From the IMG/VR virus record IMGVR_UViG_3300027833_000001, positions 1-64,000 of that record: a DNA stretch of 64,000 bases; one strand, given 5' to 3'. The stretch comes from a virus. A program made the translations under genes and the position numbers. Positions 42,398 through 62,410 of the stretch are shown here, piece by piece (positions within the stretch are counted from its first letter, which is position 1; the number at the start of each line of letters is the position of its first letter). Under the pieces are notes generated by a model, which searched no databases, had not been told where the DNA came from, and was given only the letters and a program-made list of their open reading frames with translations.

Positions 42398-42426
42398 TTG
42401 ACTTTTACAACTGTTTAGTTTATAAT
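42398..42426 (+). promoter_or_regulatory. Sigma70-type promoter
   Basis: TTGACT-17-TATAAT. Confidence 0.8.
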
Positions 42427-42451
42427 GGCACACATCAATAGGGAGGCGCAA

Positions 42452-42520
42452 ATGACGAAAACAATAGTAATCGAACTTACGGTAGCTATAGCGTGTTTAA
42501 TAATTCTCGTTACACTATAA
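42452..42520 (+). CDS. 22 aa hydrophobic peptide (not in ORF track)
   Basis: Strong SD GGAGG and own promoter; MTKTIVIELTVAIACLIILVTL. Confidence 0.6.
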   Translation: MTKTIVIELTVAIACLIILVTL

Positions 42521-42657: not shown

Positions 42658-42665
42658 TATAAATA
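42658..42665 (+). promoter_or_regulatory. T4-type late promoter TATAAATA
   Basis: Exact consensus immediately before the pseudoknot array. Confidence 0.85.
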
Positions 42666-42670
42666 GTATT

Positions 42671-42875
42671 AGAACAACCCGGTTGTAGTCCTGAGTAAAG
42701 ACTCCACCCTGTACTAAGTTAAACTGCTCCGTCAATAGAGCCAAATGCCATTGACGTTAAGCCATAGACTCCTGAGTAAGAGTATAAAACTTCTCCGGCT
42801 GTCACCTCTCTCAAAACACCGGCAGTCGTTAAACGGAGGGTCCTGGGCATGACGCTTAAACTGCCCAACTTTTTA
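42671..42875 (+). ncRNA. Putative structured RNA with three tandem H-type pseudoknots separated by hairpins
   Basis: Three units of stem-CTGRG(T/C)A loop-stem..AAACT(G/T)C(T/C)C with covarying pairs; about 200 nt with no ORF after a late promoter. Confidence 0.65.
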
Positions 42876-42894
42876 TAATGATCAAGTGGAGAAT

Positions 42895-43269
42895 ATGATG
42901 TCAGATGAAACACCCAAACCAGAAGTAGAAGAAAGTGCTGAGTATGAAAACTTTCTAGGACAGAAAGCGACTGAGTATGAAGCTCCTTCATTATCTGATG
43001 TCCTTGGAGTGGATCAAGAAGACTTACGTGGTAGTGTAAACCCAGTCAAAGATCATTGGGTAGGTATGCCAGAATACGAACATAAAAAAGATGCTGGTCC
43101 ATTTAAATCTATCAATGTACATTTTCGCAACGAAGAAGATTATCAAGCATTTGCTGAACTGCTAGGTACTGGTTTAACAAAGAGAACAAAAAGCATTTGG
43201 TATCCAAAACAATCTATTACAGCAAATTCATTAATGCGTTGGATGCAGGAAGATGATGCCGATGCGTAG
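42895..43269 (+). CDS. Conserved partner of phage GREB1/TAGT-like glycosyltransferases
   Basis: WVGMPEY..VHFRNEEDYQAFAELLG..TKSIWYP; overlaps the GT gene. Confidence 0.6.
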   Translation: MMSDETPKPEVEESAEYENFLGQKATEYEAPSLSDVLGVDQEDLRGSVNPVKDHWVGMPEYEHKKDAGPFKSINVHFRNEEDYQAFAELLGTGLTKRTKSIWYPKQSITANSLMRWMQEDDADA

Positions 43270-44197
43270 TAATCAATATCCAATTTACATAGTATCTAAG
43301 GGTAGACATGAATCCATGTTTACTTCTAGAAGTCTTGATAAGATGAATACGCAACATTACATTGCTATTGAACCACAAGACTATGACAACTATGTACAAG
43401 CGTTCGTAGAGTTCGGTATTACTACTGCTACTCTTTTAGTTCTACCCTTTAGCAATCATGGTGATGGACCTGGTCGCGCACGTAATTGGTGTTGGGATCA
43501 TTCGATGCAAAATGGCTTTGATGCTCATTGGGTACTTGATGATAACATACAATCATTCTATAGATTCAATGATAACATACGAATACGTGTGGGCTCAAGT
43601 GTATTCTTTAGAGTAATGGAGGATTTCTTTGACCGATACGATAATCTTTATATTGCTGGTCCTCAGTACCGCTTTTTTATTGCACCCAATCAGAGTTATC
43701 CGCCTTTTGTGGCGAACACTCGTATTTACTCTTGCCTTCTTATTAGGAATGATTGTTCTCACAGATGGCGAGGTAGATACAACGAAGATACGGACATCTG
43801 CTTGCGAGTTCTTAAGGACGGAGACTGCACAGTCCAATTTAACGCCTTCTTACAGGGCAAAGTTGCAACACAAACTGTAAAGGGGGGAAATTCCACTGAG
43901 TTCTATCATAAGGAGGGTATGGAAGAAGGGTTATCTGAAGAACAAGTTGCACAGATGACAAAGGAGAAAGGTGAAAGATATAACATCGATGGCACCATAA
44001 ATAAATCACAGATGCTGGAGGATATGCACCCAGATGTAGCCAGAGTAGTTTGGCGATACGGAAGGTGGCATCACTATGTTGATTATTCATCTTTTAAAAA
44101 GAATAAATTAATCTTGAAAGAAGGAGAAACATTGCCCAATGTGAAAGTAGATAACTATGGCATGAAGCTAGTTACCCTTGAAGAGAAAATAACTTAA
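43253..44197 (+). CDS. GREB1/TET-associated-like glycosyltransferase (putative DNA base glycosylation)
   Basis: YPIYIVSKGR, ARNWCWD, HWVLDDNI, YSCLLI, WRGRYNEDTD and KGGN. Confidence 0.7.
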   Translation: MMPMRSNQYPIYIVSKGRHESMFTSRSLDKMNTQHYIAIEPQDYDNYVQAFVEFGITTATLLVLPFSNHGDGPGRARNWCWDHSMQNGFDAHWVLDDNIQSFYRFNDNIRIRVGSSVFFRVMEDFFDRYDNLYIAGPQYRFFIAPNQSYPPFVANTRIYSCLLIRNDCSHRWRGRYNEDTDICLRVLKDGDCTVQFNAFLQGKVATQTVKGGNSTEFYHKEGMEEGLSEEQVAQMTKEKGERYNIDGTINKSQMLEDMHPDVARVVWRYGRWHHYVDYSSFKKNKLILKEGETLPNVKVDNYGMKLVTLEEKIT

Positions 44198-46098: not shown

Positions 46099-48566
46099 TA
46101 ATATTGACTCCTAATTAATTGTTGTAGTGTACCGTGATTCTCTTTCGACAAATCATACATTGTTCTGTTGTTGTCTTTGAGTTGACCTCCCAGATACACT
46201 TGATCTTGTAAATAAACTTGATCGCTTGCTGTCATCGTGTTATTGTAGTATGCACTCAAGTCTGTTCCAACCGCAATAGACTGTAACGCGACTGTTTGCC
46301 CTTGAGCGGCAATGTTTGACTTCTCTTCTCTTGCTTTCTTGTTGGCATCTGCCATCTTTTCGGCTAATGACTTTACTGGTTCTATCTCTTGCATAATCAT
46401 ATCTGTTACTGGCTCTATAATAGAGAATCCAATAGGCGCTGAATCGCCCAATGCGACATTTTGCCCTATCTGTTCTATATTCATTGCGAACTGAGTGTTG
46501 GAAGACCCTGTACCATCGTCACCTCCGCTCTCTCCAGACATTTGTGTGAATAACTGAGTATCACTACCAAATATTGCGCTTGAATTCAACTCAACACCAA
46601 TTTGACCGCCGTTATTACCGGTATTGAACTGTTGCGAACCGTTATCAGAGCCGTCAGCGTACTGATTTGAGCCGTTATTTTGTGATCCTGCCGATCCATC
46701 GCTATTTTGTTGTTGATTTTGATTTGATTGACCGGAATTTTGATTCATATCTTGTACATTTCCGTTATTTTGACTATTATTAGAAACATTTCCGTTGCTT
46801 TGACTATTATTAGAAACATTTCCGTTGCCATTGTTGTTTTTACCCGCACTATTGCTAGAATTTGTCTCTATACTTGAAATTAATTTACTTGTTGTTGATA
46901 ATGAGAGTGATAAAGCTAACTTGTTGCCACCTTTTTTGCTTGGACTGCTTGGCTTTGATAATTCTTCCAGTGATCCCGGCTCTTCAAGTACTTCTTCCTC
47001 TGCTTCTTCTTCTCTGATATCTCTTTCCGCTCTAGATTCGTCAGGACGATCTTCTTCCAAGTCTGCAATGTCTTCAATTTCCTCAAATAGTTCTTCTTGT
47101 GGTTCTTCAAAACTTCTTTCAAAGTCTTGGATGTCTTCAAACTGTTCTTCAAAGAATGGTTCTTCCCTAGGCATAGGAAAATTTTCTGGTCTTTCTTGAT
47201 GTTCATGTGGAGCCAATCCTGGTAAATCTTCAGGTCGTTCTATCATTACCAGTTCGAAGGCTCCAGCTTCTTGAAATTCTTCTCCGGGTATGAACTCTTC
47301 GCTAATAGGGGGTGCGGGATAAAATGTCCCTTCTTCTGGAATGTCAAATCCGCCTTGAAAATCTTCTTGGTGTCCATCTGGTACGGACCCAAACGTGAAA
47401 AGAGATCCATCTGCATCTTCTCTAGGCATATCCCCTGTCTCATTGCTAAATCCATAAAATTCCTCCTCTGACACTCCGAAACTATCTTCAAATGATTGTC
47501 CGTCATCTTGACCACCATTATTGGATCCATCGAAAGGGTCATTATTAAAGTTGGGTTGTCCGTCATCTTGTCCGTCATCAGGTCCAAAAGCAAAATTGTC
47601 ATCTTCCCAGTAATCTTCAAAGTCATCCATCATATAGCCAGGACAGAACTGGTCAGATTGTGGATCGTTATTACATTCGTTTTCGTATACTGCTTCATCA
47701 TAGAACTCGCACTCTGAGTTTGATGTTTGATCATCATTACATTGTTGTGCAAATACGGCAGCCGCATATCCAGGACAAGTAGAATCATTCAATGCGTTAG
47801 AACAATCAACACTTGCTACTGAAGAGTAACCACCGTCTGTACCATACCATGCTCTACCACCCGGTACTGTCTCTGAATGAAAGTCTATATTAAATTCTGT
47901 AAAATTGCTATCTGCAAATTGTAGCTGATTCAACTCCGACTCGTTATCCTCATTTGCTGTTAAGTCACCAGTAAATCCAATAAACACATCGTGGTTTGTT
48001 ATATCAACTTCATCATATACAAAATCAAACGAATTGTCGGTATGTATATTGACTTGGAATGTGTTCTTGTTGTTATTATAGTATTCATTTACATTGTACC
48101 ACAGAAATGACGAACCTGAATTACTGGTTTCATAAAAGAATCCACTATTAGCACCATTAGTCTTGTCTATTATGTCAGTCCATAAAGGAGCTATCATATA
48201 ACTGTAGGGAGTTATATTACCACCCGCTGATTCTAATGCTTTAAGATTAAGTCCATCACAACACAAACTTCGGTTAAAGTTATTGATCGAGGCATTTCCT
48301 AATCTGCTATTACCAATTCCAGATGATGAATCATAGAACATAAGAAAACCATTAGTTGACATCCATGCATCATTAAATGTGCCACCATAGTATGTGAATG
48401 AATGTCCTAAAGATATCTTCATAATAGAGTCATCAAAATTTTGTCCATCCATAACTTGCGTCATACCAGAAGGGCTTAATAGGTCTGGAGACGCATGAGT
48501 ATTATTGCCAAATGTGCCTACCAAAAGATAGGCTAGAAAAAATAACCCTGCAAACCAATTACGCAT
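46098..48566 (-). CDS. Large exported protein: NIDO-like domain, Cys repeats, acidic and Asn/Gln-rich regions
   Basis: Signal peptide; FTYYG..STNGFL..IAPLWTD..NTFQ; three C-x8/9-C repeats ending CPGY/CEFY. Confidence 0.65.
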   Translation of the reverse strand: MRNWFAGLFFLAYLLVGTFGNNTHASPDLLSPSGMTQVMDGQNFDDSIMKISLGHSFTYYGGTFNDAWMSTNGFLMFYDSSSGIGNSRLGNASINNFNRSLCCDGLNLKALESAGGNITPYSYMIAPLWTDIIDKTNGANSGFFYETSNSGSSFLWYNVNEYYNNNKNTFQVNIHTDNSFDFVYDEVDITNHDVFIGFTGDLTANEDNESELNQLQFADSNFTEFNIDFHSETVPGGRAWYGTDGGYSSVASVDCSNALNDSTCPGYAAAVFAQQCNDDQTSNSECEFYDEAVYENECNNDPQSDQFCPGYMMDDFEDYWEDDNFAFGPDDGQDDGQPNFNNDPFDGSNNGGQDDGQSFEDSFGVSEEEFYGFSNETGDMPREDADGSLFTFGSVPDGHQEDFQGGFDIPEEGTFYPAPPISEEFIPGEEFQEAGAFELVMIERPEDLPGLAPHEHQERPENFPMPREEPFFEEQFEDIQDFERSFEEPQEELFEEIEDIADLEEDRPDESRAERDIREEEAEEEVLEEPGSLEELSKPSSPSKKGGNKLALSLSLSTTSKLISSIETNSSNSAGKNNNGNGNVSNNSQSNGNVSNNSQNNGNVQDMNQNSGQSNQNQQQNSDGSAGSQNNGSNQYADGSDNGSQQFNTGNNGGQIGVELNSSAIFGSDTQLFTQMSGESGGDDGTGSSNTQFAMNIEQIGQNVALGDSAPIGFSIIEPVTDMIMQEIEPVKSLAEKMADANKKAREEKSNIAAQGQTVALQSIAVGTDLSAYYNNTMTASDQVYLQDQVYLGGQLKDNNRTMYDLSKENHGTLQQLIRSQY
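46756..46828. repeat. 30-bp coding tandem repeat (about 2.4 copies)
   Basis: ACATTTCCGTTRYTTTGACTATTATTAGAA at 46756, 46786 and 46816; encodes NGNVSNNSQ. Confidence 0.9.
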
Positions 48567-49877: not shown

Positions 49878-50609
49878 ATGAGAAAAGCAGTACTTAAACA
49901 AAACAATTCCTGGGCACCCATCACATTGTTGATTAGCCAACTGATCGCTCAGGTGTCATTGATACCTATGATCATGTACGCACAGTCTTGGCAATGGATA
50001 CCATTCATCGCTGTCTATTGCGCTATGATGTTAGGTGTTACAATGGGATATCATCGATACTGGTCACACCATGCATTCAAGTGCAATAAAGTTATTGAGT
50101 ATGTTATGATGTTCTTTGCTCACGTTATGATGATCGGTCCAGCAATTACTTGGGCAGCCAATCATAGAGAACATCATAGATATGCTGATACGGAAAAAGA
50201 TCCACATTCACCTCACTATAGAGGTTGGCTTCTTGCATACTTTGGACAAGTTCTTATTAATATAAACTTCAAGTATGCCCGAGACTTATTGAAGCAGAAG
50301 TTATGTCGAGATCAGGTAAAGTATTATTGGCACGTTATAGGAGCATATGCTCTCTTGTTAGTTTTGATTGATCCGTTTGCTTTAATATATGCTTGGTTAG
50401 CACCAGCAGGTGCCGCTAAGTTGATTGGCTCTTTCGTATTTACATTTTCACATAGAGGCAAAGAAGCGCATAGTGATACTTGGTTAGGAATTATAACACT
50501 TGGTGAAGGTTTTCATAAAGCACACCATGATCACGGTAACAGACAAATTCTTTGGCATAAACTTGACCTTGGAGGACAGTTAATCAGACTTATTGATAAA
50601 ACTGCTTAA
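49878..50609 (+). CDS. Fatty acid (delta-9-type) desaturase
   Basis: His boxes HRYWSH, HREHH and GEGFHKAHH; DPHSP; TM helices. Confidence 0.92.
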   Translation: MRKAVLKQNNSWAPITLLISQLIAQVSLIPMIMYAQSWQWIPFIAVYCAMMLGVTMGYHRYWSHHAFKCNKVIEYVMMFFAHVMMIGPAITWAANHREHHRYADTEKDPHSPHYRGWLLAYFGQVLININFKYARDLLKQKLCRDQVKYYWHVIGAYALLLVLIDPFALIYAWLAPAGAAKLIGSFVFTFSHRGKEAHSDTWLGIITLGEGFHKAHHDHGNRQILWHKLDLGGQLIRLIDKTA

Positions 50610-50612
50610 ATT

Positions 50613-51311
50613 ATGAATTTTAAATATGTACCCTTTGTGGCTGATAGATTTGATTATGACTATTGTAGAAGACACCCGTATCGCAATCAATTAGAAGCAC
50701 ACCCAATCGCCAACGCAGATGATATGGCTTTACTCCATGAAAATCTTACGGACTGGGAAAAAGCTATTATCATTGCAGGAAGTTATTACTTTATTTGGGA
50801 TAGCTATGACCAGAAAAGAATAACAGAGCAATCAGACAAACTAATCAGCATTGAAGACTGTCAATTCTCTTCAGATGTCCATGCAAACTCTACCAGTCTT
50901 ATTAAAGAATATGTAGAAACATATCAAGGTACTTTTAGTTTCTTGATGGGTAACAATGACTACAGACCTAAAGCAGATAGCTACTTTAAACACGCACATC
51001 AACCTACAGAGATTGATGGCAAAACATATGAAGACACTTTCACGATTATCTATCCTATACATCTAGAAAATGACGTTATAGAAGAGTTCAAAATTTTCTA
51101 TGTGGAAGAAGAAGGAATCTACAAGCTATTAAAAGCACCATTGACTTATCCAGACGGAGATGTTAAAAGTGTAAGATTTCCTAAAAAGGGTGAAGCACTC
51201 TTGATACACTTTAATTCATGTAAGGGTATTCATTGGATAGACGGACTTACTAATAATAATTTTATGGCTCATGCATTTGATTCTGTCAATATGAGGAAAG
51301 AACTATGCTAA
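50613..51311 (+). CDS. Hypothetical protein, possible cupin/2OG-Fe(II) oxygenase fold
   Basis: FKHAH..TFTIIYP..LIHFNS..IHWI. Confidence 0.4.
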   Translation: MNFKYVPFVADRFDYDYCRRHPYRNQLEAHPIANADDMALLHENLTDWEKAIIIAGSYYFIWDSYDQKRITEQSDKLISIEDCQFSSDVHANSTSLIKEYVETYQGTFSFLMGNNDYRPKADSYFKHAHQPTEIDGKTYEDTFTIIYPIHLENDVIEEFKIFYVEEEGIYKLLKAPLTYPDGDVKSVRFPKKGEALLIHFNSCKGIHWIDGLTNNNFMAHAFDSVNMRKELC

Positions 51312-52003
51312 AGAAACGAGATTTGCCTGTTGTTGCTCCTATTCCAGGAATACGATTTAACTTGGATAAGATTAAAGAAGAACTTGCTAAGATAGAACAT
51401 CTATGGGAAGACATCTACAAAGCTAATCCCGGCATAACAAAATTACATGATCCATCTTTTGTTGATAATGCATATGCAAACTTAAAAGAGATTCCCTTGA
51501 TGGTAATGTCACCAGAGAATATGGCAAAAGCTGATGACTTTGAACTTGAAGATTTGGGTGCTACTCTTAGAGATAGAATTCGTAATAAGAAAGCGAAGGG
51601 TGATAACTTACCACCAACTGCAAATGAGATGTTGTGGGATTATCAGACTGATGCTTGTAGGGGTACTTACTTTGAAGAAGCATTAGCAGGACACTTTTCT
51701 GCACCAGTTTGTCGTGCTAGACTACACTTTCTTGCACCAGGTATGAGTTTACAACCACACATTGATTATGATCCATCTTATGGTGTTAGAATCGTCTGTC
51801 CTATATCTGGAACTGATGAATGTATCAATCAATTTTGGGTAAACGGTGAGTATCAAGAACATAATCTGCCAGCAGACGGAAGAGTTTGGTTTTTGAATAC
51901 TGGATTTAAACATGGCGTAGTAAATAATGGTACTGAGCCACGCATTGCATTATTAGCTACATTGAAGAGTCAGGAAGATATAGAATGTTTGAAATTAGTA
52001 TAG
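51305..52003 (+). CDS. Asp/Asn beta-hydroxylase-like 2OG-Fe(II) oxygenase
   Basis: LAPGMSLQPHID and WFLNTGFKHGVVNNGTEPRIAL. Confidence 0.8.
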   Translation: MLKKRDLPVVAPIPGIRFNLDKIKEELAKIEHLWEDIYKANPGITKLHDPSFVDNAYANLKEIPLMVMSPENMAKADDFELEDLGATLRDRIRNKKAKGDNLPPTANEMLWDYQTDACRGTYFEEALAGHFSAPVCRARLHFLAPGMSLQPHIDYDPSYGVRIVCPISGTDECINQFWVNGEYQEHNLPADGRVWFLNTGFKHGVVNNGTEPRIALLATLKSQEDIECLKLV

Positions 52004-52626
52004 TAGAGTATGATGGTTCTAAAATAGAAAGAGAACAGATAGAGAACTTTAGAGAGTTGTCTTTTAAAGAAGGTAATGATAGTTTAGCATATGACAAATA
52101 CGACCCAGACAAGACTGGTCAGACGTTTTTAAATTATGTTGATGGCAAGCTGGCTTCATTGAGTGTTATAGAGCCAAGTCATTACACGGGTGATCCAACT
52201 GTAGCCGCAAGAGGTTGCAGACTTCACATTGCTACTGAATTTAGACCTGCTTGGTTAGGATTGCTTCATGCACCTAAACAAATTATGTGGGCAAAAGAAA
52301 ATGGGTTTAAAGTATTCTTCTTTACGCATGATATTCGTAACAGAGCAATTAATGCAATGTATCAAAAACGAAGATTTGGTGGAGCAGTTACAGAGTTACA
52401 GAAACAGATGGAATGGATGTGGACTTCAGATTGGTATCAGGACTTGTCTCTTGATAGAAGACTATTATTTCAAGTCGATGAAAGGTCTGACTTATTACAG
52501 TATGTTTATTATTGGACATTAGAAGAAGGGTATGTCTGGAAACCACCTAGCAATGTTGTTTGGTATGACCACGATGGAAGAATAAAATCGAACGTAACAG
52601 AAAAGGAAATAATTAATGCACATTAG
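51985..52626 (+). CDS. Possible GNAT-fold acyltransferase
   Basis: DGKLASLS..RLHIATEFR..WAKENGFKVFF..N. Confidence 0.45.
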   Translation: MFEISIVEYDGSKIEREQIENFRELSFKEGNDSLAYDKYDPDKTGQTFLNYVDGKLASLSVIEPSHYTGDPTVAARGCRLHIATEFRPAWLGLLHAPKQIMWAKENGFKVFFFTHDIRNRAINAMYQKRRFGGAVTELQKQMEWMWTSDWYQDLSLDRRLLFQVDERSDLLQYVYYWTLEEGYVWKPPSNVVWYDHDGRIKSNVTEKEIINAH

Positions 52627-53227
52627 CGGTGAAGTAGTTGCCACTTGGTTTAACTTTCTTAGAGATAATCAAGATGATCCAGAAGTTTGTCGTAGATACT
52701 ACGAATGCTTTTGGGAAAGTCAATTGCAAAGTAAACAAGTAGTGTTGGACATGATTGATAGAATGGATGTGTATCAATGTTACATCTTTGGTGGATGGTA
52801 TGGGTTGCTTGCACAGATTTTACATGATTCAATCCGAAATCATCATCCTGTCGTTAGTGTTGATATAGACCCTAAGTGTGCTATTGTAATTAATAATTAT
52901 TTTAATCCTGAAGATGGTATTGTAGCACATACAGGTGATATGGCAACATATAAGTATATTATTAAGCCCGAACTTGTTATCAATTGTAGTACAGAACACG
53001 TTGATCAAAAAACATACGATGCTTGGTTTGATAGAATACCATTGAACACTGAGTACATTATTCAAGGTAATAATCTGGATATACCAGAGCATATAAGACT
53101 TGCAGATGATATTAATCATTTTAAAGATATTAATAGATGCACCAAAGTCATTGATAAGAGAGTTACTGACTGTCCTGGACCCAATGGAATCTTTCAGAGA
53201 TATACGATTAAGGGAATCAAAGTATAA
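52616..53227 (+). CDS. Class I SAM-dependent methyltransferase-like
   Basis: YIFGGWYG, SVDIDP, TGDM and VINCSTEH. Confidence 0.7.
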   Translation: MHISGEVVATWFNFLRDNQDDPEVCRRYYECFWESQLQSKQVVLDMIDRMDVYQCYIFGGWYGLLAQILHDSIRNHHPVVSVDIDPKCAIVINNYFNPEDGIVAHTGDMATYKYIIKPELVINCSTEHVDQKTYDAWFDRIPLNTEYIIQGNNLDIPEHIRLADDINHFKDINRCTKVIDKRVTDCPGPNGIFQRYTIKGIKV

Positions 53228-53230
53228 TAC

Positions 53231-54022
53231 ATGGACAAAAAAGTGATAGCAGTCCATCTAGGACTCAATAAAGAATATACTCTTAATATAGAACTCTTTG
53301 ATCACAGAGTGGCAAATCGAATATGGGAAATGATACGGGTAGCAGATGATGTAGACTTTGTTTCTCGTATGGAGTTTTATAAGTTTGGTAAAACTGAGTC
53401 ACAAGTAGAATCCGACTTATATGAAACAATAGAAGAACTAAAGCGATTAAAACCTGATACCTTTACACTAGATTATGATTTAAATAGATTACATGAAAAT
53501 TTTCCTGAGTTAGTACGCACAGAAACATCGTCATCGATAAAACACTGTTTGACAATGTTTAATTATCATCTGCATCATCTTGAAAGAATGCGTCAAGGTG
53601 GTGGAAGACAATTTTTATTCTGTAGCAACATTGAGTCAGAACCTTTACAAGATGAAGACTATGATCTTTTTACTATAGGCAATAAAGAAAACATTGCTTA
53701 TATGAACTATCCTCATGTGGGTAAGAGTGTTACAGAAATAGTACAACAAGAAGACACAGAAATTCCATCACAACATATTCTCCCTACAAGTGTAATCAAG
53801 CCAGATTTATTGTTTCACTTAGACGAAGATAGATGGATAGGGAACGAACAAACAATAGTAGAATACATAAACTCATGGCTTGTTAAGATACAACATAAGT
53901 TACCGTATCCTATTAACGATAAAAGATTGGCACTTGGACACATACCCATAGGTAAAATAATCGATCCAAATATAACTAGTATAACAGAGAATCAATACAT
54001 ACACAGCATAGAGGCTATATGA
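53231..54022 (+). CDS. Hypothetical protein
   Basis: 263 aa; LNRLHENF..NYHLHHLE..YPHVGK His motifs. Confidence 0.65.
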   Translation: MDKKVIAVHLGLNKEYTLNIELFDHRVANRIWEMIRVADDVDFVSRMEFYKFGKTESQVESDLYETIEELKRLKPDTFTLDYDLNRLHENFPELVRTETSSSIKHCLTMFNYHLHHLERMRQGGGRQFLFCSNIESEPLQDEDYDLFTIGNKENIAYMNYPHVGKSVTEIVQQEDTEIPSQHILPTSVIKPDLLFHLDEDRWIGNEQTIVEYINSWLVKIQHKLPYPINDKRLALGHIPIGKIIDPNITSITENQYIHSIEAI

Positions 54023-54570
54023 AAACTTTATCAATAGAAAGTTGGGGAACTCAAGCAGAATATATTCGTAGTGGTCTTAATCTGACGCTATTCGATAAAA
54101 ACCTAGCAGAGATAGTTGACAATGGTATTGATGCTTGTATTGTATGTACCTTCAACTTACTAAGCATTCCAAACTTTAAAGAGTTTCTTGATGTTATGTT
54201 GGAATTCAAGACTGTTGCATGGCTTCGTGGTGAAGGTAAGGTATCTTTGGACACTTTCCCAGTTCATAGTCATTATCATTTATCATCATTGATATTAGAT
54301 GATAAACAGCTTGACAACCTCCGCAATTTAGTGTATTATATGTCTAAATCTGTAGATGATAGGGATGTTACTAAATTTAACTCAATAGAGTTCGCTAAGT
54401 TTGAGCGAGTACTCACATGGGTTGAGGAGAATAGGTTTACTGGTGATGAATTAGTCAAGAATAGATTAGATTTTAAAAAGTTTATTGATGAACACGATAA
54501 GGAAAGGGGTACGAACTTTACCAAAACTTTTCCAGAATTGGAGTATTTCTACGAGATGTGTAATGGCTGA
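54019..54570 (+). CDS. Truncated paralog of the downstream radical SAM family (C-terminal half only)
   Basis: SIESWGTQAEYIRSGL, TFNLLSI and DKERGTNFTKTFPEL present, but no CxxxCxxC or GGEP. Confidence 0.7.
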   Translation: MKTLSIESWGTQAEYIRSGLNLTLFDKNLAEIVDNGIDACIVCTFNLLSIPNFKEFLDVMLEFKTVAWLRGEGKVSLDTFPVHSHYHLSSLILDDKQLDNLRNLVYYMSKSVDDRDVTKFNSIEFAKFERVLTWVEENRFTGDELVKNRLDFKKFIDEHDKERGTNFTKTFPELEYFYEMCNG

Positions 54571-55948
54571 AGAAGGCACTAATGAATATTGGATCAAAGA
54601 ATTAAAAGATAAAAGAATCAAGATAAATGAAATAAGTCCTTCTTTTTGTTCTGCTAAATGGTTACAGACTACTCTGATGTTACAGAATGGTTATAATCAT
54701 TCATGTCACCATCCATCCCCACACAAGATTCCTGTTGAAGAAGTCTTGGCAAATCCAGCGGCATTGCATAATAGTAATTATAAGAAAGTGCAAAGAGACA
54801 AGATGTTGTCTGGTGTTCGACCTAAAGAATGTGACTATTGTTGGAAGATAGAAGACTTAGACAAAGAGTATTTCTCTGACAGACATTACAAGACTGCTGA
54901 TTGGTGGGCTTGGGATAAAGTTGACATTATTGCAAAGAGCGATCCTTACGAAGATGTTTATCCTACTTACTTAGAAGTATCATTCAGTAATGCTTGCAAC
55001 TTTGCCTGTGCTTATTGCTCACCCGAAATATCTTCTGGGTGGATGAAAGACATTCAGAAAGATGGCGTGTATCCAGTTAAGTTTGGTTCACATGATTTGA
55101 ACTATCTTAAAGAAGTCGGCAAGTATCCATTCAAGAATAGTGATCCAAATCCTTATGTTGATGCATTTTGGAAATGGTTCCCAGAAGCATTTAAACATCT
55201 AAAAGTATTCCGCATTACTGGTGGTGAACCTACAATGTCAAAAGACTTTTGGAAAGCAGTCGATTATATTGTAGAACATCATCACGAAAATCCAGAACTT
55301 AAAATAGGAATCAATAGTAACTTAGGTACAGACCCACGTTTGATCGAAAGACTTATTGAGTCTGTTATAAGACTAGAATCACATGGCATTGATGTTGAGA
55401 TATTCACTAGCGCAGAAAGTACTGGTAATAAAGCCGAGTATGCTAGAGATGGTATTGTCTATGATGAATGGATAGCGAACATAGAACGTATGTTGACAGA
55501 AACAAATTGTCGTGTTGTTATTATGACAACGGTAAATATATTGTCGATATCTTCAATGGTTGAGTTTGTTCAAGATATAATGGACTTACGTATTAAGTTT
55601 AATCAGAACTTGGCGCATAATAGAATACCATTAAGTGTAAACTACTTACGTTATCCACCGCATTTACAGTGTACATTGTTGACACCTATTTACCGAGAGA
55701 CAATGGCTAATACATTAGAGGTATTTTGTGAGAGTTGGTTGAAGTATGATTCACCTGACAAATTTGCTAGATTGTACTTAGAAGAATTTGACCAAGTTAA
55801 AAGACTTTGTGACTATCTGAGATCGGAGCCTACCGCAGATAAATACAGAGAAGACTTTGCAAACTTTATTAAAGAATACGATAGGCGAAGAGGAAAGAAC
55901 TTTAAAAATACTTTCCCCGAATTGATTAAAGATATGGAGAAATGGTGA
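54563..55948 (+). CDS. Radical SAM enzyme with N-terminal Twitch/SPASM-like region (paralog 1)
   Basis: FCSAKW..SCHH..CDYC; CNFACAYC; TGGEP. Confidence 0.9.
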   Translation: MAEEGTNEYWIKELKDKRIKINEISPSFCSAKWLQTTLMLQNGYNHSCHHPSPHKIPVEEVLANPAALHNSNYKKVQRDKMLSGVRPKECDYCWKIEDLDKEYFSDRHYKTADWWAWDKVDIIAKSDPYEDVYPTYLEVSFSNACNFACAYCSPEISSGWMKDIQKDGVYPVKFGSHDLNYLKEVGKYPFKNSDPNPYVDAFWKWFPEAFKHLKVFRITGGEPTMSKDFWKAVDYIVEHHHENPELKIGINSNLGTDPRLIERLIESVIRLESHGIDVEIFTSAESTGNKAEYARDGIVYDEWIANIERMLTETNCRVVIMTTVNILSISSMVEFVQDIMDLRIKFNQNLAHNRIPLSVNYLRYPPHLQCTLLTPIYRETMANTLEVFCESWLKYDSPDKFARLYLEEFDQVKRLCDYLRSEPTADKYREDFANFIKEYDRRRGKNFKNTFPELIKDMEKW

Positions 55949-57456
55949 AAAAAGAACATGATTTAATTAAGTATCGGGAAGATATTCTTGATACCAAATC
56001 TAAAAGTTTTTGTGGTGCAAAGTGGTACAATGCTACTACTTGGTTGGGCAGTGGCACTACTGCTTCATGTCATCACCCGCCCGCGCATAAAATCCCACTA
56101 GACGAAATCAAAGTCGACCCATCTGCAATTCATAATACTAAGCATAAGAAAACTATGCGGAAGATGATGCAGAAAGGCGAACGTCCAAGAGAGTGTGAAT
56201 ACTGCTGGAAAGTAGAAGACATGGATACGGGTGCTGTTAGTGACCGTACATACAAGTCGATCATCTATTCAGAAGAAGAACTTCAAGCCGCATTTGAAAT
56301 GGACCCTGATGAGAGTGTTGATTTAAAAACATTTGAAATATCATTTGACCGTACTTGTCAGTTGGCTTGTTCTTATTGCAACTCAAGTTTCAGTACAACA
56401 TGGGCTAAAGATATTAATAAGAAAGGTCCATATCAGAATCTAGTATCTGATGGTGCTGGAGCATTCCAACATAACGGAGATTGGGCAGATCCATATGGCA
56501 AGAAAGAAACTAACCCGTATGTAACAGCATTCTGGGATTGGTGGAATGACGGACTATCTAAGAGTCTAGACGAATTGCGAGTTACTGGTGGTGAGCCGTT
56601 GATGTCAGATCAGGTATGGAAACTGTTTGACTGGTTTGGTGAGAATAAAACAGATATGAGATTTGCAATCAATTCAAACTTGATGGCAAAAGATTCTATC
56701 ATTGATGCGATGATTGCGAAGACACAGAAAGTAGATCAGTTCCATCTTTATACTAGTTGTGAAGCAACGGGATTACAAGCAGATTATATCCGCGACGGAT
56801 TACATTATGAAACTTGGAAAAATAATGTATACAAGATACTGACTAATGGTAGACTTAGTGGTTGTAATATTATGATGACTATTAATAGTTTATGTTTGTT
56901 TAGTATCACGGACTTTCTTGATGATGTATATGATATGAAAATACACACAGGAATGAAAGCACCTGTTGTTAGTTTAAACTTGTTACGTTTTCCTAGCTTT
57001 CAATCTCCTCTTGCTTTACCAGATCATCTTAAAGATCACTGTCGAAAGCAACTACAAGATTGGTGGGAAGAAAAGAAAGATTTAAAATTGTGGCATGAAT
57101 TTGAAAGGGCTAGTATAGAACGTCTTATTGACTATCTTGTTACTGTTGATGCACCACATAGACGTACAAGTGATAAGATGACTTTATGGAGAGACTTCAA
57201 AACTTTCTATGCTCAATACGATGAAAGAAGAGGGTTGTCATTATCTGTATTTCCTAAAATTCTTACTGACTGGGTAGAAACTATTCCTACTACAGAAACT
57301 ATTCCATTAAAAGAAATGATTGATGGTGATAGCACTAGACAGTATGACAATGACCCCGATTTACAAGAGACTGTATCGTTAGCGAATGAAGAGGGTTGGG
57401 TACTTGACCCAGATAGTGAGAATATTGATGAACCTTTAGCATCGTATGACGAATGA
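55942..57456 (+). CDS. Radical SAM enzyme (paralog 2)
   Basis: FCGAKW..SCHH..CEYC; CQLACSYC; TGGEP. Confidence 0.9.
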   Translation: MVKKEHDLIKYREDILDTKSKSFCGAKWYNATTWLGSGTTASCHHPPAHKIPLDEIKVDPSAIHNTKHKKTMRKMMQKGERPRECEYCWKVEDMDTGAVSDRTYKSIIYSEEELQAAFEMDPDESVDLKTFEISFDRTCQLACSYCNSSFSTTWAKDINKKGPYQNLVSDGAGAFQHNGDWADPYGKKETNPYVTAFWDWWNDGLSKSLDELRVTGGEPLMSDQVWKLFDWFGENKTDMRFAINSNLMAKDSIIDAMIAKTQKVDQFHLYTSCEATGLQADYIRDGLHYETWKNNVYKILTNGRLSGCNIMMTINSLCLFSITDFLDDVYDMKIHTGMKAPVVSLNLLRFPSFQSPLALPDHLKDHCRKQLQDWWEEKKDLKLWHEFERASIERLIDYLVTVDAPHRRTSDKMTLWRDFKTFYAQYDERRGLSLSVFPKILTDWVETIPTTETIPLKEMIDGDSTRQYDNDPDLQETVSLANEEGWVLDPDSENIDEPLASYDE

Positions 57457-58766
57457 CCAGTTCTTATTTTTGTACAGCACCATGGACACACACCTATGCC
57501 TCTCCTACTGGAGAGCGTAGGCTTTGTTGTGCAAGTAGAGAAGACGCATCGTTTCAAAAGCAATACATAGACTCTGGTAACAAAGCTGGAGAATTTAATC
57601 CTGTATCTTTGAAAGAACATTGGAACAGTGAGTACATGAAAGATATTCGCAAACGTATGCTTGCGGGTGAGAAAATAAAACAGTGTGAAGTATGTAATGA
57701 TAATATATTAAACTTACACACCTATAGAAAATACTTTACGGAAACATTGTTCCCACATAAAGTGGAAGATATAATAGCTAGAACAGAGCCAGATGGTCAT
57801 TACAACGATCTTCCTATTTCATATGACTATCGTATATCAAATCTTTGCAACTTCAAATGTAGAATGTGTGGTGATCAGTTGTCGAGCAGTTGGGAAGCAG
57901 AGAATAAGATAAATGGTAGAATGCAAACTCAACCATGGACACAAAAAGACACTAGAAAGAAAATAGATACATTTCAGAAAGAAGTGTTAGAAGAAGAACT
58001 TCAAGCCGCAGTAGATGAGCGTAGAATAGAAGAAATATATTGGGTAGGTGGTGAGCCTTTAATGTGGGAACGCCATTGGACTATCTTAGAACAATTAGTG
58101 TATGATGGACAAGCAAAGGATGTTACACTAAGATATAATACAAATTTAAGTAGAGTATCATACAAGGGTATTGAGTTGTTCGACTTACTTCCACATTTCA
58201 AGCACGTTAATCTATGTGCATCGATTGATGGAGCTGGTGAAGTCGGTGAGTATATTAGAACTGGTCTAAAGTGGGATGAGTGGCTAGATAATTTTAAAAA
58301 AGGTATTCCTTTAATAGAAAAATATGGCAATGATGCTATGGTGTTTGATGTTACATTGACAACTCCAGGATTGTTTGATTTAAAACGCCTGTTCGATGTT
58401 GTTACAGAATTGGATGTAAAATCGTACTTCAAGTTCACTTTTGCATTTGATCCATCTGTTGTTATGAGTCCTTTATGTTTGCCCAGAGAGATATTAGAAG
58501 AAACCGTTAACGATTTGATTGATTACATTACTCCTAGAATGACTGATAAGACCCATGTATATAAAACATCTCTTGTTAATCTTTTGACTAGACAGACATT
58601 TCAAGAACAGTGGCCAAGAAAGTATGAAGAAGGAATCAGAAGTGGTAAAGGACATATGAAATATCTTGATCGTATTAGAAACGATAATATTGTTTTTAGA
58701 GACACTCTATCTGATAGTGCAAAAATCTGGTGGGATGCAATACCAGAAAATGAGGATTTGCCATGA
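57453..58766 (+). CDS. Radical SAM enzyme (paralog 3)
   Basis: FCTAPWTH..LCC..CEVC; CNFKCRMC; VGGEP. Confidence 0.9.
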   Translation: MTSSYFCTAPWTHTYASPTGERRLCCASREDASFQKQYIDSGNKAGEFNPVSLKEHWNSEYMKDIRKRMLAGEKIKQCEVCNDNILNLHTYRKYFTETLFPHKVEDIIARTEPDGHYNDLPISYDYRISNLCNFKCRMCGDQLSSSWEAENKINGRMQTQPWTQKDTRKKIDTFQKEVLEEELQAAVDERRIEEIYWVGGEPLMWERHWTILEQLVYDGQAKDVTLRYNTNLSRVSYKGIELFDLLPHFKHVNLCASIDGAGEVGEYIRTGLKWDEWLDNFKKGIPLIEKYGNDAMVFDVTLTTPGLFDLKRLFDVVTELDVKSYFKFTFAFDPSVVMSPLCLPREILEETVNDLIDYITPRMTDKTHVYKTSLVNLLTRQTFQEQWPRKYEEGIRSGKGHMKYLDRIRNDNIVFRDTLSDSAKIWWDAIPENEDLP

Positions 58767-59956
58767 GTAAAACTTTTTGCCCTTTACCATGGACACATTT
58801 GGCTACACACCCCCAAGGTGAATTGACTCTTTGTTGTGAAGCGGATCATACAATGGGAATCTCTGAAGCATTTGATACTGATGAGTTTGGTCAACGTAAG
58901 CCGAGAACTCTTCATACAACTGAATATGATTTCGATGCAATACAGAACAGTGGTTCATTTAGTCGAGTCAGAAGAGAGATGCTTGACGGTAAGAAACCTC
59001 CTCAATGTACAAGATGTTTCGACTTAGAGAAAGTTGGAATAAAATCTAAACGTCAATATGAAAGCGACCGATTAAACTTTGATGAAACCAAAGCAATAGA
59101 AATAACAAATGCCGACGGAACAATCAATGAAGTTTCTTACGAGTTTGTTGAGTTACGTTTGGGTAATCATTGTAATCTAGCTTGTCGTTCTTGCAACCCA
59201 TTATCAACTAGCCGATGGACAAAAGATTGGAATGAAGTAAATCCTGATAATAAACTTTCAGTTACACAGAAGCTATTCAACTGGCCACTTGATACTGATT
59301 TCTGGGAGAAACTGTTAGAGCATTCTAATACACTTAGGTATGTTTATATTAACGGTGGAGAGCCATTACTAATTGATAAGCACTTGCAATTCTTAATTGA
59401 TCTTGTTAAGTGTGGTAGATCAAAAGATATTACTTTAGTTTATTCTACTAATTGCACTGTTGTTAACCACATATACGAAGACGTATGGCGACACTTCAAG
59501 CACGTACAGTTAATGGTATCTATTGATTGTCTAGCTGAAAGAAATTCGTTTATTCGCTCACCATCAAAGTGGGATGTTATACTACAGACATTAGAATGGA
59601 TAAAAGCAATATGTAAAGTAGATAATATATCATACAATATTATGCAAACGGTTTCTGTTTATAACATCTATTATATGAAAGAGTTCCATGAATTCTTTGA
59701 GTTTGCACCTTACGTATCGATGAACTTTGTGACTGATCCTTCTTATCTGGATCCTGCACTATTACCACAAGAGATAAAAGATGCTGTTATTGCTAAGTTC
59801 CCAAACCAGACAGTTATAGATTATTTGTCTAAAGGTGAATGCGCTGACAACATGAAAGAATTCCACAAGAAGAATGCTAAGATGGATGAATTGAGAAAAC
59901 AAGATTTCAAAGCAACATTCCCAGAACTATACGATATGGTGATTCCCTATGTCTGA
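58763..59956 (+). CDS. Radical SAM enzyme (paralog 4)
   Basis: FCPLPWTH..LCC..CTRC; CNLACRSC; NGGEP. Confidence 0.9.
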   Translation: MSKTFCPLPWTHLATHPQGELTLCCEADHTMGISEAFDTDEFGQRKPRTLHTTEYDFDAIQNSGSFSRVRREMLDGKKPPQCTRCFDLEKVGIKSKRQYESDRLNFDETKAIEITNADGTINEVSYEFVELRLGNHCNLACRSCNPLSTSRWTKDWNEVNPDNKLSVTQKLFNWPLDTDFWEKLLEHSNTLRYVYINGGEPLLIDKHLQFLIDLVKCGRSKDITLVYSTNCTVVNHIYEDVWRHFKHVQLMVSIDCLAERNSFIRSPSKWDVILQTLEWIKAICKVDNISYNIMQTVSVYNIYYMKEFHEFFEFAPYVSMNFVTDPSYLDPALLPQEIKDAVIAKFPNQTVIDYLSKGECADNMKEFHKKNAKMDELRKQDFKATFPELYDMVIPYV

Positions 59957-61145
59957 TAAATTTTTCTGTGTAGCACCATTTGTTCATCTTTATGGACACA
60001 CAACAGGAGCAATTAAAACTTGTTGTGTTGGTGAAAAAACTTACGGTGATACAAAAGTAAATTCACTTGAAGAAATATGGCACAATGATGAATTTAAAAA
60101 TCTTAGAAAAGAATTTATTGCTGGTGATATCACAGATAATATAGCTAAGAATTGTGCCACTTGTATTAACTTTGAAAAGTCTGGAGTGCATAGTTTACGT
60201 ACAGCTATGAATGACTCTTATATGCAGTTCGCTGACATAGAAGAAGATCCTGATTTAAACTTAATGTATATGGATTTTAGATTTAATAATTTTTGTAACT
60301 TTAAATGTCGAGGTTGTTACAACGAGTATAGTAGTTCTATTAATGATGAAGATCATGGAGAAAGACAAGATATTATTTTTGCGGGTAAAACTGATAGAGA
60401 CATATTCGATCAAATTTATCCGTTGTTAGAAGATGTACAGAAAATTTATTTTGCTGGTGGTGAGCCTCTCATACAATGGCAACATTGGGAAATACTTGAA
60501 AGACTAGTAGAGATTGGAAGAACTGATGTTACCCTAGTGTACAATACAAATTTCAGCACAATGAAATATAAGGGTGGTAAAAATGTTATTGACTACTGGA
60601 AGAAATTTACTGACATTCAACTCTTATTGAGTTTTGATGGTATAGACAAAGGAGCAGAATACTGGCGAAATGGTTCTGACTGGCCACGACTTGTTAAGAA
60701 TGTTCATCGAGTAGTAAATGAAGCACCTCATGTTAATGTAGGTTGTACTACTACAGTTGGTTGGGCTAATCTGTACACTGCTATGGATTTTATTGATTAT
60801 TGTTCAGATAACTCAAAGACATTTATTAATCCTGAAGGTATAAATATAAACGTATTGCAACACCCAGTACATTTTTGTGTGCAGACTCTTCCTGATTGGA
60901 AGAAAGAAGAACTTGAAATACGCATTAGAAAAACACTGCATAAATATGATAGTATGGGATATAAAGATTCCTTACTATCTCGTAATCTACACGCATTGAT
61001 CACTTTCATGTGGGCAGACCGAAACGATAAAGTAGTACTTAAAGGTGCATGGAAAAGGATTGTTACTAAAAGAGACAAACTTAGAAATGAAAACTTCTTT
61101 GAGACATTTCCAGAACATATAAACATGAAAGAGTTAGTTGAATGA
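59949..61145 (+). CDS. Radical SAM enzyme (paralog 5)
   Basis: FCVAPFVH..TCC..CATC; CNFKCRGC; AGGEP. Confidence 0.9.
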   Translation: MSDKFFCVAPFVHLYGHTTGAIKTCCVGEKTYGDTKVNSLEEIWHNDEFKNLRKEFIAGDITDNIAKNCATCINFEKSGVHSLRTAMNDSYMQFADIEEDPDLNLMYMDFRFNNFCNFKCRGCYNEYSSSINDEDHGERQDIIFAGKTDRDIFDQIYPLLEDVQKIYFAGGEPLIQWQHWEILERLVEIGRTDVTLVYNTNFSTMKYKGGKNVIDYWKKFTDIQLLLSFDGIDKGAEYWRNGSDWPRLVKNVHRVVNEAPHVNVGCTTTVGWANLYTAMDFIDYCSDNSKTFINPEGININVLQHPVHFCVQTLPDWKKEELEIRIRKTLHKYDSMGYKDSLLSRNLHALITFMWADRNDKVVLKGAWKRIVTKRDKLRNENFFETFPEHINMKELVE

Positions 61146-62410
61146 GTGATGATATTTTTCCAATAAAAACTGCTACAGCCTGTCAATTCAAATGGTCATG
61201 GAGTACAATATTCTTATCTAAGGGTACAACTACAAGTTGTCACCGTTGCAACCATTGGGAATTTGATTTAAGCACACTCAAAGACTTTCATAATCTTCCT
61301 GGAAAGATTGGTGATAGAGAGAAGATGCTTGATGGTTTATGGCCAGGGAATGGATGTGAGTATTGTAAGAAGATTGAAGATGTTGGTGGTTCTAGTGAAC
61401 GTACAGCTTGGATAAACAAAAAAGATTTGATACCACCTGAGATTCTTGCTGGTGATATGAAAGCAACTAAAGTTACTCCACGTTTATTAGAAGTTTACTT
61501 TACCAACGTATGTAATCAAGCCTGTGTCTATTGTACTCCCCAATTCAGTTCCCAAATCGAAGCAGAACTTAGAAAGCACGGAGAAATACCAGCTAATCCT
61601 AGCTACATGAATCATCCTAGTATTGGCGATAACTATCCATTGTATCTACAGAAATTTTGGGAGTGGATGGAAGAACACGGATCAAAACTGTATGAGTTTC
61701 AGACTCTTGGTGGCGAACCTATGTATCAAAAAGAGTTTGAGCAGTGTATAAACTTCTTTGATAAACATCCAAATCCAAATCTCATTTGGAGAATCTTCAG
61801 CAATCTAAAGCATGATGAAGAGAAATTTAAAAAGAAGATTCAAAAAGTTAATGATCTTATTGCAAACAAAAAGATACGAGAGTTTCATATTGTTGCAAGC
61901 CAAGATTGTTGGGGTCCTCAAGCAGAGTACGCCAGATATGGAATGAATCTAAAGAACTGGGAAGCTAATCTCAGATATTGTTTATCACAGGGTGTTCCCG
62001 TTAATATCCATATGACAATCAGCGCACTGACTATTCCTACTCTAGGAGATTTCATAGACAAGATTTACAGTCTACGTAAAGAATACAAAGCAGGATTATG
62101 GATTAGTTCTAACACTATTGTTAAACCTGAATGTTTAGATCCATATATTTTTGGTGATAAAATTGCATTTTACTTAGAAGATGTTCTTACTAAGCTAACT
62201 GATCCAAATGACAAAGATCAGAAAGAATGTTTAGAAGGCATTCTTGTAGGAATGAAGTCTAGTAAAGTAAATATAAAAGAAGTAAATGATTTTAAAAATT
62301 ATTTGGATGAGATTGATAGGAGACGAAATACGAATTGGCGAATTCTTTATCCTGTTATCAGTGATATAACGGAGACAATTACGGAGAATATAATTGGCAC
62401 GTCAAGATGA
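61142..62410 (+). CDS. Radical SAM enzyme (paralog 6)
   Basis: ACQFKW..SCHR..CEYC; CNQACVYC; LGGEP. Confidence 0.9.
   Translation: MSDDIFPIKTATACQFKWSWSTIFLSKGTTTSCHRCNHWEFDLSTLKDFHNLPGKIGDREKMLDGLWPGNGCEYCKKIEDVGGSSERTAWINKKDLIPPEILAGDMKATKVTPRLLEVYFTNVCNQACVYCTPQFSSQIEAELRKHGEIPANPSYMNHPSIGDNYPLYLQKFWEWMEEHGSKLYEFQTLGGEPMYQKEFEQCINFFDKHPNPNLIWRIFSNLKHDEEKFKKKIQKVNDLIANKKIREFHIVASQDCWGPQAEYARYGMNLKNWEANLRYCLSQGVPVNIHMTISALTIPTLGDFIDKIYSLRKEYKAGLWISSNTIVKPECLDPYIFGDKIAFYLEDVLTKLTDPNDKDQKECLEGILVGMKSSKVNIKEVNDFKNYLDEIDRRRNTNWRILYPVISDITETITENIIGTSR

Follow-up and report, generated by a model that had tools for sequence, protein, structure and literature searches.

The stretch of DNA analysed here, referred to as the window, comprises the first 64 kb (64,000 nucleotides, nt) of the IMG/VR record IMGVR_UViG_3300027833_000001, a complete virus genome of 165,127 base pairs (bp). 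On its plus strand, from about position 42670 to about 42875, lies an element that we identify with high confidence as a non-coding RNA of about 210 nt, which is headed by a T4-type late promoter and contains three copies of a previously uncatalogued H-type pseudoknot module of 26-30 nt, widespread in mobile elements, together with two hairpins that join the copies. Among the proteins encoded in the record is a capsid protein of the T4 Gp23 type (E 5e-140), which makes a role of the box TATAAATA as late promoter plausible, and six of the seven plus-strand copies of this box in the window sit 6-40 nt ahead of the starts of open reading frames (ORFs). The parts of the element are listed below, followed by the features that flank it (SD, Shine-Dalgarno sequence; aa, amino acids).

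42658-42665, plus strand: T4-type late promoter box TATAAATA, kept in 10/10 related elements
42681-42709, plus strand: hairpin of unit 1, with stem 1 formed by 42687-42690 and 42700-42703 and the loop at 42691-42699
42681-42685 with 42705-42709, plus strand: imperfect helix extending stem 1 of unit 1, covarying (GC, UA or AU at one pair)
42687-42729, plus strand: pseudoknot unit 1, with stem 2 formed by 42693-42697 and 42725-42729 (5/5 pairs) and a long linker ending in UUAAAC
42730-42762, plus strand: spacer hairpin 1 (hairpin 42730-42756, 7-bp stem 42730-42736 with 42750-42756), then UUAAGC
42768-42795, plus strand: pseudoknot unit 2, with stem 1 formed by 42768-42771 and 42780-42783 and stem 2 by 42774-42778 and 42791-42795
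42796-42834, plus strand: spacer hairpin 2 (8-bp stem 42796-42803 with 42821-42828, including two G-U pairs), then UUAAAC
42840-42866, plus strand: pseudoknot unit 3, with stem 1 formed by 42840-42842 and 42851-42853 and stem 2 by 42845-42849 and 42862-42866
42870-42874, plus strand: U-run, 3 nt after unit 3
42886-43269, plus strand: SD and 124-aa orphan ORF, with the GGAG of the SD at 42888-42891
43253-44197, plus strand: gene for a TET-associated glycosyltransferase (TAGT, PF20691), following the 124-aa ORF; a neighbour, outside the RNA
42398-42426, plus strand: sigma-70-like promoter matching 11/12 consensus positions, upstream of a 31-aa ORF

A preliminary description of this DNA had proposed that pseudoknots repeat in a structured RNA downstream of a T4-type late promoter, with variable hairpins as spacers; our analysis supports that architecture. 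The TATAAATA box, the three units, the hairpins, the T-run and the strings CTCCAC and GTGGAG are all present as it gave them, and the covariation it noted in stems 1 and 2 holds between the units as well as across ten related elements. Its pairing scheme for unit 2 needs correction: the unit is present, but stem 2 forms only four of its five pairs and contains one U-U mismatch. Unit 3 forms all five as a GGGCA/UGCCC variant. The units in the window measure 27-43 nt and have only their core in common, stem 1 and the length of the linker being different in each, and the spacers between them are 38 and 44 nt long. Hairpin 1 keeps a CGUC...GACG frame between lineages while its inner stem and loop vary, and hairpin 2 (42796-42828) has a 17-nt, CU-rich loop and shows compensatory changes in the related loci L002, L087 and L091. 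The U-run after unit 3, which has its counterpart in a U-rich tract 3' of unit 3 in eight of the ten related elements, is a possible 3' end or weak terminator. A CU-rich, CUCUCAA-like motif that may be a second functional element occurs in the hairpin-2 loop of the window (42804-42820); L089 and L090 have it in the loop of hairpin 1, and in other phages it stands 5-12 nt downstream of single units.

The module itself has a stem 1 of 3-5 variable base pairs with C:G as closing pair; its loop reads CUGAGYAW, its A-rich linker ends in AAAC, and UGCUC follows. Stem 2, five base pairs between GAGYA and UGCUC, is nearly invariant; a 2-nt CU loop precedes its 5' strand and a single W nucleotide follows it. 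All three window units conform to a slightly wider definition, with a C:G-closed stem 1, CU, GRGYA paired to UKYYC and a linker ending in AAAC. Our covariance model R1 scores unit 3 at 25.7 bits (E 4.6e-5) and unit 2 at 20 bits; unit 1, which the model splits at its long linker, fits the descriptor. A descriptor scan of the whole 165-kb genome returned the three units and only two weak look-alikes, and shuffled genomes gave 0-4 matches (mean about 1). As the descriptor was taken from the units themselves, independent tests weigh more.

One such test is the comparison of related elements, of which ten distinct versions were recovered by protein-anchored and pattern scans: that of the window; L002, L092, L087, L089, L090 and L091, where the element lies upstream of the 124-aa ORF; L105 and L111 (L111 equals L101, and L367 is a further variant); and L110. 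In every one of them TATAAATA, all three units and both hairpins are retained, and several additionally have an overlapping TTGACA-17-TATAAT-like promoter. Stem 1 occurs in the compensatory variants AGUC/GACU, AGAC/GUCU, CGAC/GUCG, GCC/GGC and GGAAC/GUUCC, and stem 2 as GAGUA/UGCUC, GGGCA/UGCCC, AAGUA/UGCUU and AGGCA/UGCCU, with all five stem-2 pairs formed in 27 of the 30 units. An RNAalifold run on seven elements detected double changes in hairpin 2 and in the extended stem 1 of unit 1, and also in stem 2 of the second and third units; the arms of the unit 1 extension differ in sequence in L090 and L091 yet are complementary. A long-range helix suggested by the same program, between the tail of unit 1 and CGGAGGG before unit 3, was not adopted, as it shows zero covariation and competes with stem 2. 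A coding function of the small ORFs at 42745-42852 (plus strand) and 42719-42991 (minus strand) is unlikely, given that the indels in the relatives are not multiples of three and that a start codon is absent.

The related elements also bear on whether the RNA belongs to the operon in which we found it. In L105 and L111 the element is preceded by a strong terminator, carries an overlapping sigma-70-like promoter and TATAAATA, and continues into the 3' end of the gene converging on it, with no same-strand gene downstream, so that nothing on its strand is available to be regulated. The phage carrying this type of element is likewise T4-like, with a genome of 165 kb, and the genes flanking the element there have no homologue in the genome of the window. 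The host phage of L110, complete at 48 kb, is without Gp23; in this phage (G003) a canonical unit scoring 39.9 bits lies inside the direct terminal repeat (40-73 and 48064-48097). Taken together, the element's own promoters, its unrelated flanking genes and its context in L110 indicate that the RNA travels independently of the glycosyltransferase operon, although in the window the distance of unit 3 from the ORF is the one usual for a 5'-UTR. The suggestion of a dedicated cis-regulator of that operon is therefore not upheld: the same RNA lies between non-homologous genes in another T4-like phage, and in L089-L091 a second promoter-like site and a hairpin stand between unit 3 and the 124-aa ORF. 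The promoter-like site belongs to an inserted segment about 40-100 nt upstream of the ORF, in which a TTGACA...ATAAT-like promoter overlaps a perfect 6-bp inverted repeat, and which is absent in the window. Searches with model R1 found the module nowhere else in the window's genome, and in the other complete T4-like genome the only R1 match lies on the strand of the three-unit RNA; in contrast, nine units are dispersed over a 63-kb fragment from another phage.

The finding is thus real and larger than the preliminary description supposed, since the unit is not specific to this locus but a very widespread module of mobile elements. A scan of IMG/VR for TATAAATA together with one unit gave at least 93 distinct strict units in the matched loci, with up to six units per 10 kb and nearly all of them on the coding strand. 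For prokaryotes we scanned one genome per species (about 186,000 species) using the invariant letters only and leaving stem 1 unconstrained beyond its closing pair, a search for which we estimate about 60 chance matches. The matches listed come from Saccharibacteria, Parcubacteria, Omnitrophota, Chloroflexi, Bacteroidota, Firmicutes, Actinobacteria, Alpha- and Betaproteobacteria and Cyanobacteria and, among Archaea, from Methanobrevibacter and Bathyarchaeia; cultured carriers include Ligilactobacillus salitolerans, Lacticaseibacillus hegangensis, Brucella daejeonensis and Nocardia nova, which makes mapping of transcript ends feasible. Across these very distant hosts about 17 positions are near-invariant. 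A stem 1 of at least 3 bp is formed in 97 of the 115 distinct prokaryote matches listed (84%), as opposed to 12 of 115 (10%) when the 5' strand is slid by 3 nt, and the inner triplets of stem 1 are of 12 different types among these 115. Candidates picked without any requirement on stem 2 were bimodal, with all five stem-2 pairs present in 110 of 168, and in the variants among these 168 each altered 5' strand is paired with a matching altered 3' strand. An ungapped alignment of 138 units contains double changes in 191 cells where 65 are expected, a value reached in none of 500 shuffles; this set was chosen for pairing, so that the slid control for stem 1 and the unbiased set for stem 2 are the fair tests. 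The G-U pairs of the alignment, 38 of which fall at one stem-2 position, imply that the folding strand is that of the transcript and the gene. Arrays of two to six units occur in unrelated phages, some with hairpin spacers like those of the window. In L371 (1342-1564 and 1706-1732) a six-unit array with CU-rich spacers of 9-10 nt lies in an operon leader, and its alternate units have a stem 2 variant with one mismatch.

The module is a structured RNA family absent from Rfam 15, although the H-type pseudoknot fold as such is classical. Rfam 15 gave no match for the window at the gathering score, for 500 nt at E up to 10, for the canonical unit, or for the units in 20 bacterial loci, near which only the neighbouring DUF2800, hammerhead, tRNA and nhaA-I were matched. 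The cmscan check called for in the preliminary description was thereby carried out, including the preQ1, type III antitoxin and skipping-rope models, and neither these nor other phage-linked Rfam motifs matched. A hit to Proteo-phage-1 (RF03044) at 42762-42827 was rejected: at 14.4 bits against a gathering score of 42 (E 6.3) it comes from 13 nt in the loop and 3' arm of hairpin 2 that match the model's 3' end, without structural agreement, and is probably due to chance. The resemblance of stem 2 to a common tRNA D-stem sequence was likewise treated as coincidence. In the open-access literature we found no description of the module, and matches to its sequence strings were primers only, though an unindexed description may exist; it is not mentioned by Weinberg 2017 (PMC5737381).

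The placement of the module with respect to genes follows a pattern. Its neighbours of mobile-element type include DUF3768, ArdA, ArdC, a KilAC antirepressor, YolD, scaffold and minor capsid proteins and a resolvase, downstream genes further include MerR and tRNA, and PHROG and Pfam searches of the neighbours in other loci revealed no common partner gene. The distance from a stop codon to stem 1 peaks at 5-6 nt; 36 of 60 prokaryotic cases have 3-11 nt, and none has less than 3 nt. The mRNA entrance of a terminating ribosome ends at roughly this distance. The distance from the unit to the next start codon is broad (12-41 nt), and the 28-31 nt between the end of unit 3 and the start of the 124-aa ORF correspond to the usual spacing for single units. 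In many phages about 6-13 nt separate TATAAATA from the start of the module, which places it close to where late transcripts begin. A U-tract directly follows a subset of units, and the flanks are G-poor, being A-rich upstream and C/U-rich downstream. Units also stand beside other RNAs. One lies 4-9 nt upstream of a phage tRNA-Asp in L141 (2562-2667), L143 (2076-2185), L156 (9532-9643), L161 (12518-12629) and L191, and stem 1 of these units covaries between the phages. A type III hammerhead directly follows the unit twice within 300 nt in a Polynucleobacter metagenome-assembled genome (MAG; L248, 7321-7622, minus strand) and once in a Saccharimonadales MAG (L310, 5367-5398, minus strand); cleavage there would leave the knot a few nucleotides from the new 3' end. 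In four Firmicutes loci (L343 882-1071, L270, L294 and L348) DUF2800 RNA (RF02960, 140-157 bits) starts at the base after the unit, and this published motif may have an unrecognised 5' pseudoknot partner.

The reading that we rank first, with a probability of roughly 35%, is that each module forms a compact knot, stabilised by a triplex, and protects RNA against exonucleases as an 'end cap' or punctuation mark. It fits the stop-proximal, pre-cleavage-site and 5'-end positions, the serial arrays and the need for the module to work in any host. The sequence, the covariation, the distribution and the positional statistics are observations; the triplex fold, the resistance to nucleases and the ends of the transcript are inferred. 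The geometry of the module can place the CU loop in the deep groove of stem 2, with the A-rich linker running along the shallow groove of stem 1. Each knot would stop exonucleases and shield a nearby 5' end, and transcripts or processed fragments that start or end at a module would thereby survive. In other phages the module stands as close behind the stop codon as the terminating ribosome permits, only a few nucleotides ahead of sites cut by RNase P or a hammerhead, or where a late transcript begins. In the phage of the window, three serial modules would produce a very stable small RNA or 5' leader, whose cargo might be either the variable hairpin loops or the downstream 124-aa/TAGT message.

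Several observations weigh against the end cap. A purely mechanical role leaves the near-invariance of stem 2, the CU loop and AAAC from phages to archaea without an explanation; it would be more typical of a specific binding site, a ribozyme or an aptamer. The modules in the window's genome are not at the ends of protein-coding messages, and the cap has to be stretched there to a 'stable small RNA or leader'. The positional preferences could in part result from tight gene packing. Thermodynamic support is also lacking, the nested-only fold energy of the region being no better than that of shuffles (z = 0.04), which is expected of a fold program that cannot form pseudoknots.

Known structures offer partial precedents for such a cap. 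The intercistronic RNase III hairpins of T7 and the 5' or 3' stabilisers of mRNA, such as the ompA leader and the stabiliser of phage SP82, resemble the module in its proposed function, as they lie between the cistrons or at the ends of polycistronic phage RNAs and define and protect RNA ends; unlike the module, which is a sequence-conserved pseudoknot with putative processing found across phyla and in archaea, these hairpins and stabilisers are simple hairpins that depend on host-specific enzymes. Similar in structure are the frameshift pseudoknots of luteoviruses such as beet western yellows virus, the readthrough pseudoknot of murine leukaemia virus and viral exoribonuclease-resistant RNAs, compact triplex-type H pseudoknots that sit 5-9 nt past the decoding site and mechanically resist a translocating machine. 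The peak of the module at 5-6 nt from stop to stem 1 falls within this spacing, but a function in readthrough or frameshifting was rejected. There is no slippery site, the median extension past the stop is 8, 4 and 7.5 codons in the three frames (8 in-frame) without enrichment, and the module also occurs at 5' ends and before tRNAs; as no frame continues through it, it is not a recoding signal.

A portable knot that protects RNA ends, or one that recruits a universal factor, would explain how phages punctuate their polycistronic messages and would be of use in synthetic biology. More generally, if the finding holds, the module would constitute a new and very common class of structured RNA shared by mobile elements across phyla and archaea, to be placed beside hammerhead and twister. 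With about 27 nt and some 17 near-invariant positions it lends itself readily to probing, crystallography and nuclease assays, and the difference between phages with units scattered in their messages and T4-like phages with a single dedicated RNA provides a handle on function in cis versus in trans.

That difference favours the main rival, ranked second and in our assessment a possibility to be taken seriously, though less probable than the end cap: the module may be a specific binding site for a conserved protein or ribonucleoprotein (the ribosome, a ribonuclease, or a factor of the mobile element or host), in which case T4-like phages would use their three-unit RNA as a multivalent decoy to titrate this factor. 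Such a site would account for the near-invariance of about 17 nucleotides across very distant hosts, and a decoy is consistent with nine units dispersed in the messages of the 63-kb phage fragment as opposed to one dedicated array in each of two complete T4-like genomes, with the recurrence of arrays of two to six units elsewhere and with the presence of early-type and late promoters on the element in relatives. The sponges CsrB and RsmZ, which titrate CsrA, are comparable in that one RNA holds several copies of a short motif found elsewhere singly in mRNA leaders; here, however, the messages of the window phage itself are without the motif and the partner is putative. A partner common to many phyla and archaea would, moreover, have to be universal, and the flanking genes are heterogeneous. 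A more far-reaching proposal, which we consider doubtful, takes the 27-nt pseudoknot as a new universally functional RNA class that bacterial and archaeal mobile elements have in common, either a minimal self-cleaving ribozyme or a knot recognised by RNase P, the ribosome or another universal enzyme; the three-copy array of T4-like phages would then be a trans-acting decoy directed against the host or against competing mobile elements that depend on the module.

Ranked third, and rather unlikely, is a processing signal that punctuates the polycistronic transcripts of mobile elements. The module would then be a small self-cleaving ribozyme of a new kind, or else a pseudoknot resembling a tRNA acceptor, which RNase P or RNase Z would cut, and the array would yield unit-length products. 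The spread of the module across domains and mobile elements matches that of hammerhead and twister ribozymes, and units directly adjoin hammerheads, tRNAs and DUF2800 RNA. Its topology is that of the acceptor pseudoknot of turnip yellow mosaic virus, with a U before the first G of stem 2 and G:C as first pair, and stem 2 is followed by an A in 70-85% of units (70% of those from phages), while the commonest 3' triplet is ACC. Yet ACC follows only 21 of 138 units (15%), a mimic of the T-loop is absent, and the loop has Y where the hammerhead catalytic core needs G8. The Rfam ribozyme families, among them hammerhead, pistol, twister, hatchet and hepatitis delta virus-like ribozymes, match none of the units, the hammerhead matches in L248 lying beside the unit and not on it, and mapping of the module by eye onto hammerhead, pistol and hepatitis delta virus-like architectures failed. 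To our knowledge, 27 nt is below the size of any natural self-cleaving class, which counts against a ribozyme in particular.

We regard tandem ligand-sensing aptamers, in the form of a minimal preQ1-I-like riboswitch acting cooperatively on the 124-aa/TAGT operon, as improbable. The module falls into the same size class as the preQ1-I aptamer (RF00522), itself a minimal H-type pseudoknot of about 30 nt with a short stem 1 and a 2-nt first loop that sometimes occurs in tandem, and in both stem 2 is formed by the hairpin loop and the 3' tail; the A-rich 3' linker that lies in the stem 1 groove of the aptamer would do so in the module as well. Several riboswitch classes are known to have tandem aptamers, and the genes downstream in the window modify DNA. 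The conserved nucleotides are different, however, and no riboswitch model was matched, the preQ1-I model included (cmscan at gathering score and at E up to 10). The module has no link to queuosine genes and occurs in dozens of unrelated gene contexts, its diverse neighbours including structural, anti-restriction and tRNA genes. An expression platform and an overlap of stem 2 with the SD or a terminator are absent, the SD and start codon lying 12-41 nt beyond the unit and outside it; the single inter-stem loop nucleotide varies between A and U, and some arrays have no downstream gene.

Still less probable is a cis-acting leader in which CTCCAC in unit 1 (42702-42707) would mask the SD of the 124-aa ORF by pairing with GTGGAG (42886-42891). 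The complementarity of six nucleotides noted in the preliminary description is present and is kept in five of the seven relatives having the ORF, but it does not bear out a sequestration of the SD. L105 and L111, although without the ORF, conserve CCACC to the same degree, so that the masking loses its basis; there CCACC pairs locally with GGUUG as the covarying extension of stem 1. L090 and L091 have GTGGAG and no CTCCAC, and the promoter of L089-L091 falls between the two sites.

A type III toxin-antitoxin RNA, or a phage-borne mimic neutralising a ToxN-like endoribonuclease, can be all but set aside: phage-encoded pseudo-ToxI is established, and tandem pseudoknot units behind one promoter with a U-rich end do resemble the phage- and plasmid-associated ToxI, CptI and TenpI loci, but those antitoxins are near-identical, contiguous head-to-tail repeats of 34-45 nt that precede a ToxN-family gene and are cut by its product, whereas the units here share only their core, are separated by unrelated hairpins, have no ToxN/AbiQ-like gene near them in the window (the 124-aa ORF matches neither family, and in L105 and L111 no same-strand gene comes after the element), and belong to a module that is usually single and occurs in that form hundreds of times in messages of unrelated elements.

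Some further observations concern the surroundings of the element. BLAST searches of GenBank phages with the window locus and with one unit-rich locus gave no match. The 124-aa ORF probably starts at the ATG at 42898, the one kept in relatives; it has no family match in Pfam, PHROGs or PADLOC, and its neighbours in the ESM Atlas are orphan viral proteins only. A TET/JBP domain was not found in the genome in a search that lacked a positive control. Directly upstream of the element, positions 42398-42520 hold the near-consensus sigma-70 promoter, a GGAGG SD and the hydrophobic 31-aa ORF, and early transcripts from this promoter could read into the three units; L002 conserves about 85% of this sequence as far as 42650. 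Further downstream, at 54485-58766, three consecutive ORFs of 437-504 aa give weak matches to radical-SAM families and belong to a run of co-oriented ORFs from 49878 to 63980, a cluster that is unusual for a T4-like phage.

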